From Clostridia bacterium (GTDB lineage: Bacteria > Bacillota > Clostridia > Oscillospirales > CAG-272), in contig JAGATD010000053.1 of assembly GCA_017621415.1 (NCBI GenBank), positions 96 through 64,095 on the forward strand: a DNA stretch of 64,000 bases, read 5' to 3'. The notes beneath the pieces are model-generated. The model had not been told where the DNA came from. It searched no databases and was given only the letters and a program-made list of their open reading frames with translations. The first letter of the stretch is position 1. Each line of letters starts with the position of its first letter. Below, piece after piece: positions 1 through 15,750 of the stretch. A program made the translations under genes and the position numbers.

Positions 1-20
1 AGCATAAAAAGGATATAATA

Positions 21-130
21 TAAGTGCGGGTGTATCTCAGCCCTAAATGAGAAACTTACTAAGCGAACTTCTCTTGGTTCTTTCAAGAAAGTTACAAGTG
101 AGTGTTTCGCTACTCAAAATGCGAAAGTTA
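21..130 (+). ncRNA. Candidate type III antitoxin RNA (ToxI/antiQ-like): three units in 36-nt register upstream of the ToxN/AbiQ gene
   Basis: GAAA(C/G)TTA occurs at 51, 87 and 123, an exact 36-nt spacing. Units 23-58 and 95-130 share 23/36 ungapped identities; the middle unit is degenerate. TATAAT lies at 14-19 upstream, and a terminator followed by the toxin gene lies downstream. Confidence 0.4.
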
Positions 131-138
131 TGTAATGG

Positions 139-170
139 GGGCAAGGCACACTTGCCCTCATTTGCTTTTT
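139..170 (+). terminator. Intrinsic terminator/attenuator between the repeat leader and the toxin gene
   Basis: GGGCAAG (139-145) pairs with CTTGCCC (151-157) around a 5-nt loop, followed by the T-rich TCATTTGCTTTTT. Confidence 0.6.
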
Positions 171-181
171 AGGAGAACTCA

Positions 182-670
182 ATGGACAACCTTAAGCTTT
201 ACGAAATTAACGGGGGCTACATTACATATCTCTCGGCATATGCTCCGCATCTGTTTCAGAATAAGAAATCCGGGCAGAAGAATGAGAGAAAATATATCGG
301 TATCGTTTTACAAATCAATGGCTTTGATTACTTCGCGCCGCTTTCCTCTTTTAAGGACAAGCACAGGCTGATGAAAGAAGGTCTTGATTTTATCAAGATC
401 AAGGACTATGCCGTTATCAATCTGAATAATATGTTCCCTGTGCCGCTGAGCGAAACCAAGTACGTTGATATCAGAAATGAGCGAGATCCGCACTATCGTT
501 CCTTGCTTTTATCTGAGTACCGTTATATCAAGTCTATTCAAGAGAAGATTTGGAAGAACGCGCAGAACGTCTATAAGATCAAAATTAAGGACGGAGATGC
601 TTCATCTCTTGCCAAGCGCTGCAACGATTTTCTTCTGCTTGAGAAGGCGTGTGCAGATTATATGAAGTAA
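182..670 (+). CDS. Type III toxin-antitoxin toxin, ToxN/AbiQ-family endoribonuclease
   Basis: 162 aa. The blocks KYIGIVLQINGFDYFAPLSSFKDKH and VINLNNMFPVP match my memory of AbiQ/ToxN. RBS AGGAGA sits 5 nt before the ATG. Confidence 0.85.
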   Translation: MDNLKLYEINGGYITYLSAYAPHLFQNKKSGQKNERKYIGIVLQINGFDYFAPLSSFKDKHRLMKEGLDFIKIKDYAVINLNNMFPVPLSETKYVDIRNERDPHYRSLLLSEYRYIKSIQEKIWKNAQNVYKIKIKDGDASSLAKRCNDFLLLEKACADYMK

Positions 671-696
671 TATTCCAACGCAGATCGTGAGGTGAA

Positions 697-1947
697 ATGA
701 ATAGTATGGGAAAATACAGCAATTTGATAAAATACTTAGATTTATTTCCCAACGATAACTTTGGAAAGTGGTTTGTCGATATCGAAGGTGATGGTACTTT
801 TGAACGCCCGTATCAATTTCCCCATGTTATGTACTCTGAGTTGGTAAACGAATTTATTCATGATGTACATAATTGTGCTGATCAAATAGGACTCAATGAT
901 TATGTAGAGATATTAAAGCGACATAGCATTGAATGGGGTAGCAAATCAATGAGCGGGGCTGATGTTACACAGCTTTCTGCAGATGTCATTTGCGCGTTAT
1001 TGCTTGGTGCTGTTCGGGCGGAAAAGTTTTGCGACGGAGCTTTGTTGGGCTTCTTCGAGGACGGAAGTATACAAAGATGGTTAAATGAGTTGAAAATCAA
1101 AGCGGAGGGTGAAAAAATGTCTTGCATAAGGATAGATGATTTGTTGAGAATTCCGGCTTCTGAAGCAACCAATGTGAAAGTTAAATTTAATCAAAATAAT
1201 GGCACTGAAGATCCGATGGATTTGTATTTAAAAAATCCCGAAATTGTGAACTGTCAGTGGCTATTTTGGCGTAACAAGCAAAGATATTTTAATGTTGGAC
1301 AGATAGCAATTTGCCTTTTAAAATTATCATATGACACATGGCTTTTAACTACCATCAAAAGAGTTACGGAAGAACTTGGAGTCGTTAACGGAATTAACTA
1401 CAAGGGTGAGGAGATTGCAGAGTATAGTCAGTATTTTGGCAGAGTGATTATTAAATATCACAAAACAGCTCAGACGCAAGGCATGTTTTATAATACAGTC
1501 TGTGATGAGTTGGAGGTGCTTGAAGTCCTTCCCAATGTGTTTGACGGCGACGAATTTCCCGGCTACGACAAGGTTCGCCTTTCGTATATGCAGTTGCAAT
1601 CAATCATTGAACGGCAGAAGAAAAGTTGGATAGCTGCTCTTGAAAATCAAAAGGCGGTATATCTTATTACAGACAAAAGTAACGGAAAGTTGTATGTTGG
1701 TTCTGCAACAAGCGATAATGGTATGTTGCTTACTCGTTGGTCAAATTACGCCGAAAACGGACACGGGGGCAATGTAGAGTTGAAAAAACTCGTTGCCGAA
1801 AAAGGATTCGATTACATAAAGCAGAATTTTCAATATTCGATATTAGAAAATTACAATGCAAGAGTTGATGATCACGTGATTTTAGATCGAGAGTCTTGGT
1901 GGAAGGAAACCCTACAAAGCAGAACTTTCGGTTATAACGATAATTAA
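697..1947 (+). CDS. GIY-YIG nuclease-domain protein with ~300-aa N-terminal region of unknown function
   Basis: The C-terminus reads AVYLITDKSNGKLYVGSA...RWSNY...GHGGN...ESWWKETL...GYNDN (GIY-YIG layout). RBS GAGGTGA. The gene starts 26 nt after the toxN stop. Confidence 0.75.
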   Translation: MNSMGKYSNLIKYLDLFPNDNFGKWFVDIEGDGTFERPYQFPHVMYSELVNEFIHDVHNCADQIGLNDYVEILKRHSIEWGSKSMSGADVTQLSADVICALLLGAVRAEKFCDGALLGFFEDGSIQRWLNELKIKAEGEKMSCIRIDDLLRIPASEATNVKVKFNQNNGTEDPMDLYLKNPEIVNCQWLFWRNKQRYFNVGQIAICLLKLSYDTWLLTTIKRVTEELGVVNGINYKGEEIAEYSQYFGRVIIKYHKTAQTQGMFYNTVCDELEVLEVLPNVFDGDEFPGYDKVRLSYMQLQSIIERQKKSWIAALENQKAVYLITDKSNGKLYVGSATSDNGMLLTRWSNYAENGHGGNVELKKLVAEKGFDYIKQNFQYSILENYNARVDDHVILDRESWWKETLQSRTFGYNDN

Positions 1948-1977
1948 ACAATTTGATATTAGCAAAGGAAGATTAAG

Positions 1978-2744
1978 ATGATTGGTGAAAAAGTTCGTCA
2001 TTCCATATTTGGAGAAGGTACAATAAAAGAGATCAAAGACGGCTCAAAAAGCTATCAGAAATATATTACCGTAGAATTTAAAGTATGCGACAAAAAGTTC
2101 ATATTCCCTGACATTTTTGAAAAATACTAAAAACAGATAGTGAAGTTCTCAACAGAGAAATCCAAACAGCATTTGAGAACATCAAGGCAGAACAAGAGAA
2201 GGAACGCATCGAGAAGGAAAAAGAAAAGGCGAGAATTGAGTTTGAAAAAGCCGAAGCTGAAAGAATCCTTCTTGAGAAAAAACAAGCTAAGAGAACACAT
2301 ATAAATACAACTGTTATCAGTGGAAATCTTATTAAGGGGCAGGTTTATGGAACTGCCGCCAAAGATATTTTTGAGGCTGGTTGTGACGCTTTTGCTTGGA
2401 ATCAATATGAATCAAAATGCTTTGGATGGCAAACGCCAAACTATAGCGAAATTGCAACCAAGGAAGGTTATAGCGTTTGGTTTTTAGCACACAGTAATTG
2501 GACAAATACCGATACCGCCGGAGTTAAGAACAAAATTTCCGAAACATATATGGAACAATGGTGGATGGAGTCAGATCACCCCGTTGCTACAACTCGCAAA
2601 CGATTGATATTCGCAAAAAAAGATAATCATTACATATTCTTGGGATTGTTCAAGTACATTGGTAAAGAGTGCACGGAAATACAAGATGGGAAAATCTATT
2701 ATATTGAGAGATTCGACCGTGTTTCAGAAGAATATCCAGAATAA
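1978..2744 (+). pseudogene. Gene split by a frameshift: Tudor-like N-terminus (GEKVRHSIFGEGTI) + coiled coil + unknown C-terminal domain
   Basis: The frame from ATG 1978 stops at 2128-2130. A second frame is open from 2121 to 2744 with no start codon before 2550. The two frames overlap at an A5 run (2120-2124). Adding one A gives a single ~256-aa ORF. Confidence 0.5.
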
Positions 2745-2796
2745 TATTGTACCACATCGGTGCTATAAAAAAGTGGAATCTTTCTCCGCAAACCTC

Positions 2797-2825
2797 TTGT
2801 AATTATTCCGTTTTTATGGTATAAT
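2797..2825 (+). promoter_or_regulatory. Sigma-70-like promoter with no ORF downstream
   Basis: TTGTAA (2797-2802), 17-nt spacer, TATAAT (2820-2825). Downstream, GGTATC (2857-2862) can pair with GATACC at 2866-2871 or at 2877-2882; the latter is followed by T6. Confidence 0.35.
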
Positions 2826-3047
2826 AAATCAAACAGAGATAGTGTGTTTTTCGGGTGGTATCGGTGATACCAATTTGATACCGTTTTTTCGTATACCCCA
2901 TAGATTATGGGGGGAAAGATAGGCGGATTACCCGAAAAAAGCACGTTAAAATACCTAATTTCACTCTGAATATTGCTAATTTAAGCGAGTGGGAATAAGG
3001 TTTGCTTAGCGAAACCCAATTATGATCGTTTCGAAGAAACGGTTGTA

Positions 3048-3170
3048 TCATAACATTTGGCGAAGCCAAATTCATAACTCCAAACTCATAACCCATACTT
3101 TTTCAATCAGCGAAACGAGTTATCGGTTATGATTGCTTTAGGCAAGTTATGATTGGCTTCGCCATTTTTT
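3048..3170 (+). other. Long imperfect hairpin built from TCATAAC/GTTATGA repeats, followed by T6
   Basis: GGCGAAGCCAA (3059-3069) pairs with TTGGCTTCGCC (3153-3163). Inner stems are 3072-3078/3146-3152 and 3086-3093/3125-3132. TCATAAC occurs at 3048, 3072 and 3086; GTTAT(C/G) occurs at 3119, 3126 and 3146. T6 lies at 3165-3170. Confidence 0.5.
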
Positions 3171-3176
3171 AGGACT

Positions 3177-3205
3177 CTTGAAATAGCGGCTTCAAGTTGT
3201 TTTTT
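3177..3205 (+). terminator. Second terminator-like hairpin
   Basis: CTTGAA (3177-3182) pairs with TTCAAG (3191-3196), followed by TTGTTTTTT. Confidence 0.5.
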
Positions 3206-3244
3206 GCTGTTGTTTGTTATTGTTTGTTATTTTATAGTTTGCTA

Positions 3245-3273
3245 TTGCATTTATTGCCAAAATTTGTTATAAT
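3245..3273 (+). promoter_or_regulatory. Sigma-70-like promoter for the psiE-like gene
   Basis: TTGCAT, 17-nt spacer, TATAAT. Confidence 0.5.
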
Positions 3274-3377
3274 GTAGGGAAGAAAGAATAATCCGAACTC
3301 GCTCTAAAACCTGAATTTTCAGCGCTTTCGGCACTTATCACTCTTGCCTATTCATCAATATTTTACGGGAGATTTGC

Positions 3378-3776
3378 ATGAACAAGAAAATCGGTAAGGC
3401 TTTTTATTTTGTAGTTCATATTCTTGAATATCTGATAGCCCTTATAACCCTTGCGGTGCTTGTGTTTATGCTGGGTTACGAGATTTATAAAATGTTTGTA
3501 ACCGAGGGCTACTTTAACCAGGTTGACACCTATTTACATAACATACTGACAATAGTTGTCGGTCTCGAGTTCGTCAGAATGCTTATAAACCTTACTCCGG
3601 CCAACACGCTTGAGGTGCTTATTGTGGCTATTGCCCGCCAGGTTATTGTTGACCACTCGGGATTGCTTGAAAACATTGTTTGCGTGCTCTGTATTGGCGG
3701 ACTTTTCTCAATTCGTAAGTTCCTTATTTCAAAGCATGATTTAAGCCGAGAGCTTTCTGAGGGAGATGAAGAGTAA
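3378..3776 (+). CDS. Small integral membrane protein, PsiE-like
   Basis: 132 aa with about 4 TM segments. The VGLEFVRMLI...IARQVI pattern recalls the PsiE family. RBS GGGAGA. Confidence 0.55.
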   Translation: MNKKIGKAFYFVVHILEYLIALITLAVLVFMLGYEIYKMFVTEGYFNQVDTYLHNILTIVVGLEFVRMLINLTPANTLEVLIVAIARQVIVDHSGLLENIVCVLCIGGLFSIRKFLISKHDLSRELSEGDEE

Positions 3777-3873: not shown

Positions 3874-5952
3874 ATGAAAATAAAGACAAACATTTTCTCT
3901 CTGATTTTGACTGTATTAACCTTAATTTTGGTTATGTCGTCATGCGACTCCGTTATAGCAGAGGCTCCTTGCGATCATTTATGGATAGATGCCGATTGCA
4001 AAACAGAAAAGCACTGCGAGAAGTGCGGTGAAACCGATGGCGAAGCACTGGGTCACACTCCGGGTGCAGAAGCAACCTGTACTGCCGACCAGACCTGCAC
4101 CGCGTGCGGCGAAACTCTTGTAGCAAAGCACCATACCCCCGAAGCGGTTAAGGGCTATGCCGCCACCTGTACCGAAGACGGCATGACCGATGGAGTAAAG
4201 TGCGGAAAATGCAGCGAGGTTATTACTCCCTCGGAGGTTATAGACGCAAAGGGACACACCCCCGGCGACGAAGAAACCTGCACCACCGACCAGACCTGCA
4301 CCGTGTGCGGTGATACTCTTGTAGCAAAGCACCATACCCCCGAAGTGGTTAAGGGCTATGCCGCAACCTGTACCGAAGACGGCATGACCGACGGAGTAAA
4401 GTGCGGAAAATGCGGTGAGGCAATTACCCCGTGTGAGGTTATAGATGCAAAGGGACACACCCCCGGCGCAGAAGCAACCTGCACCACCGACCAAACCTGC
4501 ACCGTGTGCGGTGATACTCTTGTAGCAAAGCATCACATACCAGTAGTGGTTAAGGGTTATGCTGCCACTTGTACTTCAACGGGGCTTAGCGACGGTGAAA
4601 AGTGCGGCTCCTGCGGGGAAATACTTACCGCGCAAAAGACTATAGGGCTTAGGCCCCACACCGAGGTAGAAATTTCTGCTGTAGCTCCTACCTGTTATGA
4701 TAGCGGGCTTACCGCGGGTATCAAGTGCGACGTGTGCCAGCAGGTCATCAAGGCGCAAACCGCGGTTTCTGCCGCAGGACACAGCTTTGAAGACGGCGTA
4801 TGTACAGTGTGCGGACAGGGTTATTATAACGAGGGTATGGTCTTTGAGCTTGATAATACAGAATCATACTATATAGTCGTAAGAATAGGTTCCACCTCCG
4901 ACAAAAACATAGTAATTCCCGCAACATACAAGGGGCTTCCCGTAAAGACGATAGGTCGCGACTTTACAAGATACAATAGCAATAAGGCAAGCTTTGAAAC
5001 TATCACAATTCCCTCCGGCATAAACTGTATTGAGGCGGACATCAGCTACTCAGGCAAGTATAGTCCTTTTGCCGGTTGTGAGAACCTTAAAAAGGTTTAT
5101 ATCGAGAGCCTTGACTCTTGGTTCGATATGCAGATTGGCACTTGGGGAGTATGCAATCCTTTGCATTATGGCGCTGAGCTTTACTGTAACGGAGAGCTTG
5201 TAACGGAGGTTACGGTGCCCGAGCGTATAACCGAGCTTTATAATGATTTGTTTGACGGTTGTTCATCAATTACAAAGATCAACTTCCACAATTCTATGTA
5301 TGTAATAGGCGGCTTCTACAATCTGCCTAATCTTACCGAGGTTAAAATTCCTTCATGTACTAAGGTAATTGTTTCGGCATTTTCGGGCTGCTCATCACTT
5401 AGCGTAATTGATATTCCCGATACAGTTTATCATATTTTTGCAACCTTTGAGGGCACTGCTTATTACAACAATCCAGACAATTGGGATGAGGGCAATGTGC
5501 TTTATGTAGGTAAGCATTTGATCAAAGCAAAAAATACAATAACAGGCGAGTATACTGTAAGAGACGACACTAAGAGTATTTCTGCATTTGCATTTAATGG
5601 CTGCCGTGGTCTTACTAAGCTTACTCTTAACGACGGGCTTGTGACCATCGGCAACGGAGCCTTCGCCAGCACTGCAAATCTTCAGAGTATAACCATTCCC
5701 GCAACCGTACGATACATTGGTTATAATGTCTTCGATTATATGTATAACAACAGGTACGGATTGGAAATCATCTTCAACTACACAGGCCCTTGGTATCAGC
5801 ACGGCGACTTGTACAAAAACCTTGCAAATTCGTCTTATATATACGGTACGAGATACAACACCGTAGTTGTATACTATGTTAACAATCAAAAGGTTACCGG
5901 CGGCACTCCGGGCATGAAAGATACCACCTATTCCGAAGCGATTTGCCATTAG
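3874..5952 (+). CDS. Surface lipoprotein: Cys-rich 67-aa repeats plus BspA-type leucine-rich repeats
   Basis: Lipobox LVMSSC. Three GHTPG...ATCT.DG.TDG.KCGKCGE modules. The C-terminal half carries LRR-like ITIP..V..IG..AF motifs. Confidence 0.75.
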   Translation: MKIKTNIFSLILTVLTLILVMSSCDSVIAEAPCDHLWIDADCKTEKHCEKCGETDGEALGHTPGAEATCTADQTCTACGETLVAKHHTPEAVKGYAATCTEDGMTDGVKCGKCSEVITPSEVIDAKGHTPGDEETCTTDQTCTVCGDTLVAKHHTPEVVKGYAATCTEDGMTDGVKCGKCGEAITPCEVIDAKGHTPGAEATCTTDQTCTVCGDTLVAKHHIPVVVKGYAATCTSTGLSDGEKCGSCGEILTAQKTIGLRPHTEVEISAVAPTCYDSGLTAGIKCDVCQQVIKAQTAVSAAGHSFEDGVCTVCGQGYYNEGMVFELDNTESYYIVVRIGSTSDKNIVIPATYKGLPVKTIGRDFTRYNSNKASFETITIPSGINCIEADISYSGKYSPFAGCENLKKVYIESLDSWFDMQIGTWGVCNPLHYGAELYCNGELVTEVTVPERITELYNDLFDGCSSITKINFHNSMYVIGGFYNLPNLTEVKIPSCTKVIVSAFSGCSSLSVIDIPDTVYHIFATFEGTAYYNNPDNWDEGNVLYVGKHLIKAKNTITGEYTVRDDTKSISAFAFNGCRGLTKLTLNDGLVTIGNGAFASTANLQSITIPATVRYIGYNVFDYMYNNRYGLEIIFNYTGPWYQHGDLYKNLANSSYIYGTRYNTVVVYYVNNQKVTGGTPGMKDTTYSEAICH
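4051..4653 (+). repeat. In-frame 201-bp tandem repeat (about 3 copies) inside the lipoprotein gene
   Basis: Units start at 4051, 4252 and 4453. Units 1 and 2 are close to 90% identical at the DNA level by eye; unit 3 diverges after about 110 nt. Confidence 0.8.
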
Positions 5953-15529: not shown

Positions 15530-15750
15530 ATGTTAAAAGCTATGATGAAGACAGTAGCGTTTGGGGTGTCTTAAGAGAGGCGGCGGTTGGTGTGAGCCGT
15601 TGACAAGCTTTACGTGAATATCACTTCGGAGCTGCGCAGGTGAATTTTTTTTAGTAATCTGTGCCGCAGGCTCAGCGTAAAAGGGGCGCGTATTGATTGA
15701 TGCGTGAAATAGGTGGTTTATTCCGTTTCCGTTTTGGGGACGGATTTTTT
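15530..15750 (+). promoter_or_regulatory. T-box leader, isoleucine specifier
   Basis: AGAGA and GGTGTGA stem-I motifs. ATC-A at 15620-15623. T-box-like AATAGGTGGTTTATTCCG. Terminator TCCGT/ACGGA followed by T6. Confidence 0.8.

Follow-up and report, generated by a model that had tools for sequence, protein, structure and literature searches.

Type III toxin-antitoxin systems have been classified as a group that includes ToxIN of Pectobacterium and AbiQ of Lactococcus (PMC3401426). Uzume, which is listed among the validated defence systems, has been reported as a single-gene system with GIY-YIG homology and is traced to Millman et al. 2022 (bioRxiv 10.1101/2024.10.26.620412; PMC12926258), the name itself being absent from the Millman preprint; our literature search returned no relevant paper for 'UzuA' and no paper giving Uzume a mechanism. 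A further GIY-YIG protein, PD-T4-3/CMoRE, is a type IV restriction enzyme specific for 5-hydroxymethylcytosine (PMC12923530). Here we describe the beginning of a 64,000-nt stretch of a Clostridia bacterium genome (contig JAGATD010000053.1, positions 96 to 64,095 of the forward strand; henceforth the window, meaning this whole stretch), where a toxIN unit is followed by a gene for an Uzume-like GIY-YIG nuclease (gene 2) and by a gene with Tudor and SRA-like domains (gene 3). These are probably two separable defence modules that follow one another in a small, variable island behind guaA, and the second of them may act in a type IV-like restriction.

The original prediction, made from the letters of the sequence, had presented toxN as the head of a three-gene operon and candidate composite defence module, with genes 26 and 30 nt apart, a ribosome-binding site (RBS) for each, no terminator until after 2744 and an AT-rich composition. 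Most of this description stands. The open reading frame (ORF) table places toxN at 182–670, gene 2 at 697–1947 and the next ATG at 1978, all on the + strand; the sites GAGGTGA (686–692) and AAAGGAAG (1964–1971) were located in the sequence; a consensus scan found no + strand terminator in 163–3500; and the block has 38.2% GC against 44.8% in the rest of the window, equal-sized stretches elsewhere having at least 38.5%. Gene 1 is toxN, as it matches the Pfam ToxN family end to end, and gene 2 is the GIY-YIG fusion that had been announced, with this domain at its C-terminus. The PADLOC check that had been suggested gave defence-family matches, AbiQ for gene 1 and UzuA for gene 2. The third gene, taken to be a single ORF from 1978 to 2744, is in fact broken, frame 1 closing at 2128–2130 and the remainder lying in frame 3. 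Since the homologues of gene 2 begin at its second ATG, at 706 (413 aa), the gap between toxN and gene 2 may be 35 nt. The features of the block are as follows.

1–27, + strand: 3' part of the toxIN promoter, with the -10 TATAAT at 14–19 and the -35 just before the window start
28–135, + strand: toxI-like antitoxin RNA (putative) of three divergent 36-nt units, 28–63, 64–99 and 100–135
134–172, + strand: predicted intrinsic terminator between toxI and toxN, with a 12-pair stem (134–162) and a T-run
182–670, + strand: toxN (gene 1), ToxN/AbiQ-family type III toxin, 162 aa
697–1947, + strand: gene 2, DUF6508 and Uzume-like GIY-YIG nuclease, 416 aa (413 aa if translation begins at ATG 706)
1978–2130, + strand: gene 3, 5' fragment in frame 1, 50 codons and then TAA, UvrD/PcrA-type Tudor domain
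2120–2124, + strand: frameshift site of gene 3, a run of five A (six in the homologue at L001), 1-nt deletion
2121–2744, + strand: gene 3, 3' part in frame 3, long helix and then an SRA-like domain at ~2319–2741
2790–2998, + strand: conserved right flank, non-coding, kept in 7 loci with different cargo

The distribution of these genes was followed over a set of numbered loci (L001 onwards) that come from GTDB genomes on the gene 2 side and from metagenomes on the toxN side (72 loci, 52–97% identity), with some from IMG/VR. Outside the window, the three-gene layout was seen only in L002, where the genes are all intact and 26 and 33 nt apart, and in L003, with ~82% DNA identity over the whole block, and none of the 72 metagenomic toxN loci has gene 2 or gene 3 nearby. 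The toxN copies that are 93–97% identical to that of the window have other genes downstream. Genes 2 and 3 are found as a pair without toxN in at least four other contexts, each with its own upstream region: behind a different upstream gene and with their own promoter (L001), after a small Tudor-like ORF (L015), after a 23S-rRNA-IVP gene and again downstream of guaA (L017–19), and in reversed order, with gene 3 preceding a 276-aa nuclease core (L020–22). In all, 7 distinct contexts have the two genes side by side, and either one can come first. The DUF6508 domain moves between them, being on gene 2 in the window and on gene 3 in P0130/L023, and L104 has three separate genes, next to one another, for the UzuA core, a DUF6508-like protein of 102 aa and a protein of 345 aa that begins with the same Tudor domain. 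Gene 2 stands alone at eight more distant loci (L004–L006, L008–L012), and only partial copies were seen in L007, L013 and L014. Because genes 2 and 3 pair without toxN, none of the 72 metagenomic toxN loci has them and near-identical toxN genes carry other cargo, the link to toxN looks like a lineage-specific juxtaposition. The Tudor-SRA protein appears, from these neighbourhoods, to be a conserved and non-obligatory partner of the Uzume-like nuclease. The original prediction had left two readings side by side, that genes 2 and 3 are partners of toxN or that they are a system of their own which has come to lie on the toxIN transcript. The linkage patterns favour the latter, and the conservation of the neighbourhood that it asked for is present in the two sister loci and missing from the 72 metagenomic toxN loci.

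In gene 2, residues 8–133 are a DUF6508 domain (Pfam PF20118, E=1.8e-11; nt ~718–1095) and residues 319–414 a GIY-YIG domain (Pfam, E=7.6e-5; nt ~1651–1938). The C-terminal 185 aa (residues 231–416 of 416) match both PADLOC models of UzuA (E=7.6e-49 and 1.8e-47), covering positions 98–278 of the 278 of the model (65%), and the UzuA-like conserved core extends over nt 1117–1947. Six residues, Y322, Y333, R347, H356, E399 and N414, show no variation among 33 sequences and correspond in the alignment to Y6, Y17, R27, H40, E75 and N90 of I-TevI, the protein that Foldseek also retrieved (1mk0, probability 1.0). As judged from its sequence, gene 2 would thus encode an Uzume-like nuclease with its catalytic residues intact. 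At E<=1e-3 there are 2857 clusters, a large family that comes in two forms, one of ~410 aa with DUF6508 and another of ~276 aa that starts at what is M141 in the window. A strong internal RBS, GGAGGGTGA, with an ATG at 1117 (within 1100–1120) lies exactly at the start of the 276-aa homologues, and because of this coincidence the fused ORF could also yield a short nuclease without DUF6508. Among the genes near the UzuA core are some for reader-HNH-like proteins and others for restriction-modification. The middle of gene 2 (residues 141–315) was considered as a second SRA-like reader and rejected, the profile-profile comparison with the gene 3 family giving 0.3% probability and Foldseek finding the GIY-YIG domain only, with an AlphaFold (AF2) model that is moderate in that region.

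The architecture of gene 3 was read from an intact homologue, P0121 (91% identical), whose AF2 model has a pLDDT of 87 and consists of a small beta domain (residues 1–49), a 50-residue helix and a C-terminal alpha/beta domain. The 5' fragment in the window matches the Pfam family PcrA_UvrD_tudor (E=4.8e-4), as do 17 of 29 family members, and with the N-terminal domain of P0121 Foldseek found 5dma, 7egs and 9dqs (template modelling (TM) scores 0.69–0.76; probability 1.0), among matches to the C-terminal Tudor domain of UvrD/PcrA and to the RNA-polymerase-interacting domains of CarD and Mfd. The C-terminal domain retrieved the SRA domain of SUVH5 (3q0f, of the type bound to methylated DNA) with probability 1.0, and also SauUSI. 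The Pfam SRA family PF18491 is reached by the relatives P0149, P0150 and P0152 (30.3–36.3 bits; cutoff 30.2) and, in a sensitive profile search, by 67 of the 147 best representatives (1687 representatives in all). Among the same 147, the SRA-like domain is fused to the C-terminal domain of GreA/GreB in seven (P0408, P0414 and five others) and in four to DUF4268, which we take to be nuclease-like. The GreA/GreB C-terminal domain is an RNA-polymerase-binding module, and since the SRA-like domain is joined to a Tudor domain in some relatives and to this module in others, a link to RNA polymerase is suggested. No match to gene 3 was found in IMG/VR or in the plasmid search.

In the window this gene is interrupted. 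Frame 1 ends in TAA at 2128–2130 after 50 codons and the remaining 207 codons (2121–2744) continue in frame 3, where no start codon is met until 2550 at the earliest. All 33 homologues (mostly ~255 aa) are uninterrupted, with FIFPDIFEK-(I/L/M)L(K/R)T spanning the position of the break. In the DNA alignment L001 has GAAAAAATA where the window has GAAAAATA, and because of this difference the window is short of one A in the run at 2120–2124. The shift may reflect a genuine loss-of-function mutation or an error of assembly; a -1 slippage site is the least likely of the options. Slippage of -1 by tRNA-Lys on A-AAA would restore the exact homologue sequence; a programmed frameshift was nevertheless rejected as the main reading, as no homologue shares it. 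Unless the shift is an assembly error or rare -1 slippage rescues the gene, gene 3 would be inactive here and at most the nuclease would be active.

The toxIN unit is of a known kind. ToxN aligns to PF13958 (ToxN_toxin) over model positions 1–159 of 159 (E=1.8e-46, 158.7 bits, cutoff 25) and to the AbiQ model of PADLOC (E=7.8e-38). The window starts inside the toxI promoter and its alignment to L002 runs from base 6, so the left edge was read from the sister loci; in L002, guaA ends and is followed by a terminator, and then come TTGACA-17 nt-TATAAT, the leader and toxN. Each of the three units of the leader opens with a hairpin of a 4-bp stem and an 8-nt loop, and GAAANTTA recurs at 51, 87 and 123, at an equal offset in each unit and with an exact 36-nt period. 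Over 14 loci the three hairpins are 99.4% paired, with compensatory changes at four pairs, against 21–52% in a control with slid partners. At the equivalent place, distant toxN loci (L052–L078, 53–61% ToxN identity) have two or three near-identical repeats of ~37 nt, the canonical form that unit 1 of the window clearly resembles; the diverged three-unit leader belongs to the lineage of the window and to relatives at ~70% identity (L029–L051, L097). The units resemble one another only weakly, and no toxI array was detected by Tandem Repeats Finder, the period having been found by reading the sequence and comparing loci; Rfam gave no ToxI-like or credible RNA family in the block, only weak chance matches (window at the gathering threshold; 1–3400 at E<=10). 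The stem at 134–162 and its T-run are the sole + strand terminator-like site in 1–3500. With these parts in place, the type III toxin-antitoxin unit appears to be complete. The diverged leader would imply three non-equivalent RNA units in one predicted ToxN complex. It also illustrates that the repeats of a type III antitoxin, three in this case, can be diverged instead of identical.

The island around these genes is variable. Downstream of the closest toxN copies (L027, L028, L047/48 and the toxN remnant of L096) there are genes for a DUF2089 protein, an opposite-strand ECF-sigma fusion and a TPR protein, and the same non-coding flank of ~210 nt that ends those cargos follows gene 3 in the window. 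The flank contains a promoter-like TTGTAA-17-TATAAT (2797–2825) and alternative GGTATC/GATACC hairpins with a T-run (~2857–2893), and it ends in CGAGTGGGAATAA (2986–2998), a 13-nt repeat of the guaA stop region. In L002 and L014 the identical 13-mer is found both at the guaA stop, which is the left edge, and at the end of the flank. These alignments suggest an island that begins with toxIN and closes with a conserved tail, around an exchangeable middle for which genes 2 and 3 would be one of several inserts; in an island adjacent to guaA, a toxIN cassette can form the constant head in front of cargo that varies. The element at 2790–2998 may itself encode a small RNA or mark the end at which the island recombines. 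A slot dedicated to defence was considered and dropped, given that the DUF2089 regulator, the ECF-sigma fusion, the TPR protein and an apparent M20-type peptidase in L014 (a label not confirmed by family search) have no defence signature. The copies compared carry different lesions: toxN is frameshifted in L003 by a 1-nt deletion in an A-run (302–786) and has an internal deletion in L096 (250–432), L014 has lost gene 3 and keeps no more than the last 65 codons of gene 2 (4070–4276), and the window has its frameshift in gene 3, so that L002 alone is intact.

DUF6508 also exists as stand-alone genes of 136–148 aa. These lie directly upstream of McrB-McrC (L119–123), directly beside GmrSD (L118, L131, L133) or within an island that also contains GmrSD and HsdR (L125), upstream of a PD-(D/E)XK nuclease (L132/L136) and near a type I methylase (L147). 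Because of such neighbourhoods DUF6508 looks like a recurrent accessory of restriction-type, and especially modification-dependent, nucleases. No paper on DUF6508 was found in the literature search and the domain had no match in the plasmid search; its association with McrBC, GmrSD and other nucleases gives it a first functional context.

Putting these elements together, the reading that we consider probable has two modules. Module A would be an abortive-infection unit made of a strong promoter, a three-unit toxI-like RNA, an attenuating terminator and toxN. Module B would be made of the Uzume-like GIY-YIG nuclease and its Tudor/helix/SRA-like partner. In the lineage of the window no promoter of its own was detected for module B by consensus matches, and because it is presumably read through from the toxI promoter the two modules would be co-expressed without forming a functional unit. 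Within module B, the SRA-like domain of gene 3 would read modified cytosine-type bases in invading DNA, its Tudor domain would anchor the reader on either RNA polymerase or the nuclease, cutting of the DNA would fall to the GIY-YIG domain of gene 2, and DUF6508 may be a regulatory or sensor accessory, common to other type IV nucleases, that modulates the nuclease. A more specific version of the same scheme would make the Tudor-SRA protein a sensor of modified DNA that rides on RNA polymerase and licenses the Uzume-type nuclease: the SRA-like domain would inspect DNA under transcription for base modifications of the phage type, and the Tudor domain, in whose place relatives have the GreA/GreB C-terminal domain, would keep the protein on the polymerase, in effect a transcription-coupled type IV restriction with DUF6508 as an accessory shared by GmrSD, McrBC and UzuA; we offer it as a speculative proposal that is quite unlikely to be right in full.

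Several observations speak against the probable reading and have to be set beside it. The 276-aa core is present in 423 plasmid records, and in the two neighbourhoods that were inspected it was solo both times, next to genes for ArdC-like proteins, Y-family polymerase, Pycsar or Shedu; it is also found at 19 IMG/VR loci. Since the core is mostly solo and Uzume has been described as a single-gene system, gene 3 would not be required for it. Fairly close relatives of gene 2 (L004, L005) are without gene 3, and gene 3 homologues at 49% identity or less are not beside UzuA. For the SRA domain the Foldseek E-values are weak (6e-3) despite the high probabilities, and gene 3 of the window reaches no Pfam SRA threshold, the assignment being transitive. 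Co-transcription of both modules is presumed solely because no internal promoter or terminator matching the consensus was found. DUF6508 is, moreover, fused to Macro and ADP-ribosylglycohydrolase domains (L139/L140, L143/L146, IMG/VR), which suggests an ADP-ribose chemistry that the restriction-accessory role leaves unexplained.

Other explanations start from the same facts. The tight spacing (26 and 30 nt), the common strand, the lack of any internal promoter or terminator match and the order and spacing kept in L002 and L003 are what one would expect if the three genes were one integrated system, with ToxN and the nuclease pair depending on each other, either because release of ToxN triggers the nuclease or because the pair senses infection for ToxIN. 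Such a system, however, should not be confined to three loci that share ~82% DNA identity over the block, and its parts should not separate as readily as they do: genes 2 and 3 are missing from the 72 other toxN loci and occur in at least four contexts free of toxN, unrelated cargo takes the same slot after a near-identical toxN, and ToxIN and Uzume have each been reported to be self-sufficient. We regard interdependence of the three genes as highly improbable. A very unlikely alternative, if slightly less so, would take gene 2 as a selfish free-standing homing endonuclease of the GIY-YIG type and gene 3 as an unrelated neighbour. Its GIY-YIG domain is indeed closest to I-TevI and to phage intron and homing endonucleases, and at several loci (L100–L103, L111–L113, IMG/VR) the 276-aa core lies between apparent terminase and portal-like genes (recognized by ORF size and order, with no family search), a typical site for such elements, or for a moron. 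PADLOC homing-endonuclease models match too, albeit weakly, and the E-value of 4.5e-7 compares with 7.6e-49 for UzuA, a far stronger match, while TIGR01453 scores 37.1 bits against a cutoff of 56.05. In addition, the catalytic domain of gene 2 is C-terminal (319–414), inverted with respect to I-TevI, and no NUMOD or IENR modules were detected; the family is abundant on plasmids and beside restriction-modification, Pycsar and Shedu genes; and neither the adjacency with gene 3, kept in both orders, nor the DUF6508 fusions common to both genes would be expected of unrelated neighbours.

A different view puts the weight on toxIN, which would be mainly an addiction or stabilising element and a promoter cassette for swappable cargo, its link to genes 2 and 3 being regulatory or selective. 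This overlaps with the two-module reading that we favour, and much of the island agrees with it: the succession of promoter-toxI-terminator-toxN, cargo and 210-nt flank is found in 7 loci, the island lies between direct repeats, 13 nt long, of the guaA stop region, and the cargo of the window lineage has no promoter of its own. Against this, some of the alternative cargo (L048, L027) is on the opposite strand and therefore not driven by the toxI promoter, the toxN genes of L003 and L096 have decayed while their cargo persists, and no recombinase or recognisable recombination site was identified. As an account of the whole locus it is unlikely, though worth keeping in mind. Two separable modules, brought together in one lineage, remain in our opinion the probable explanation.

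A few other features of the window were recorded. At 3050–3170 there is an imperfect palindrome of ~120 nt that resembles repetitive extragenic palindromic (REP) sequences or miniature inverted-repeat transposable elements (MITEs), with a weak chance match to a plant microRNA model; a 45-nt copy of it adjoins guaA in L017 and L018. The sole Rfam match in the window is a T-box leader at 15533–15735 (95 bits; gathering score 93). Positions 3874–5952 encode a 692-aa protein with a signal-like N-terminus, at least four Cys-rich repeats of ~65 aa (~200-nt repeats in the DNA) and a repeat-rich C-terminal part, probably a surface protein unrelated to the three-gene block.

The original prediction knew of no described system with this composition. 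That statement needs dividing, since gene 2 appears to belong to the described Uzume (UzuA) family, and its pairing with a Tudor-SRA protein or with DUF6508 was not found in the literature. As far as we searched, the Tudor-SRA partner, the DUF6508 associations and a toxI of divergent units are undescribed, and toxIN and Uzume themselves are known kinds.

With the ToxIN and AbiQ-antiQ systems the locus shares a ToxN-family toxin, a putative upstream repeat region, non-coding and with a 36-nt period, a terminator before the toxin gene and a single promoter. It differs in that the units are strongly divergent, keeping only the hairpin and a short motif, and in that two more genes are on the same presumed transcript in the lineage of the window. 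The N-terminus of gene 3 has the fold of the Tudor domain of UvrD/PcrA and of CarD/Mfd (7egs, 5dma, 6yi2, 4kbm; TM-score 0.69–0.76, root-mean-square deviation 1.9–2.9) together with the motif V-H-x-x-FGEG-x-I, but it is joined to an SRA-like domain and not to a helicase or a transcription factor.

The likeness to type IV, modification-dependent restriction lies in the combination of a nuclease, GIY-YIG or other, with a modified-cytosine reader, a putative one here, and no cognate methyltransferase. In CMoRE, PvuRts1I and the SRA-HNH enzymes reader and nuclease are in one polypeptide, whereas here they are in separate genes 30 nt apart. In comparison with PD-T4-3/CMoRE, a single protein with an N-terminal GIY-YIG domain, there are two proteins here and the domain of gene 2 is C-terminal; gene 2 has no PD-T4-3 match in PADLOC and by that measure is not homologous. 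Unlike in the known type IV enzymes, the reader is also equipped with a Tudor domain of the RNA-polymerase-binding type, and it is a reader whose modification dependence we infer.

With Uzume, finally, the common ground is the match of the C-terminal 185 aa to the UzuA models, including an intact GIY-YIG domain, and a 276-aa core that occurs widely, often by itself and commonly on plasmids, in agreement with reports on Uzume. The region of gene 2 ahead of model position 98 is unlike UzuA, and there is an extra N-terminal DUF6508. A partner with an SRA-like reader, the fusions of this reader to two domains of the RNA-polymerase-binding type and the contexts of DUF6508 provide a testable hypothesis of modification-dependent restriction for Uzume, which in this clade, where a Tudor-SRA gene accompanies the nuclease (adjacent in 7 contexts), is not a single-gene system.

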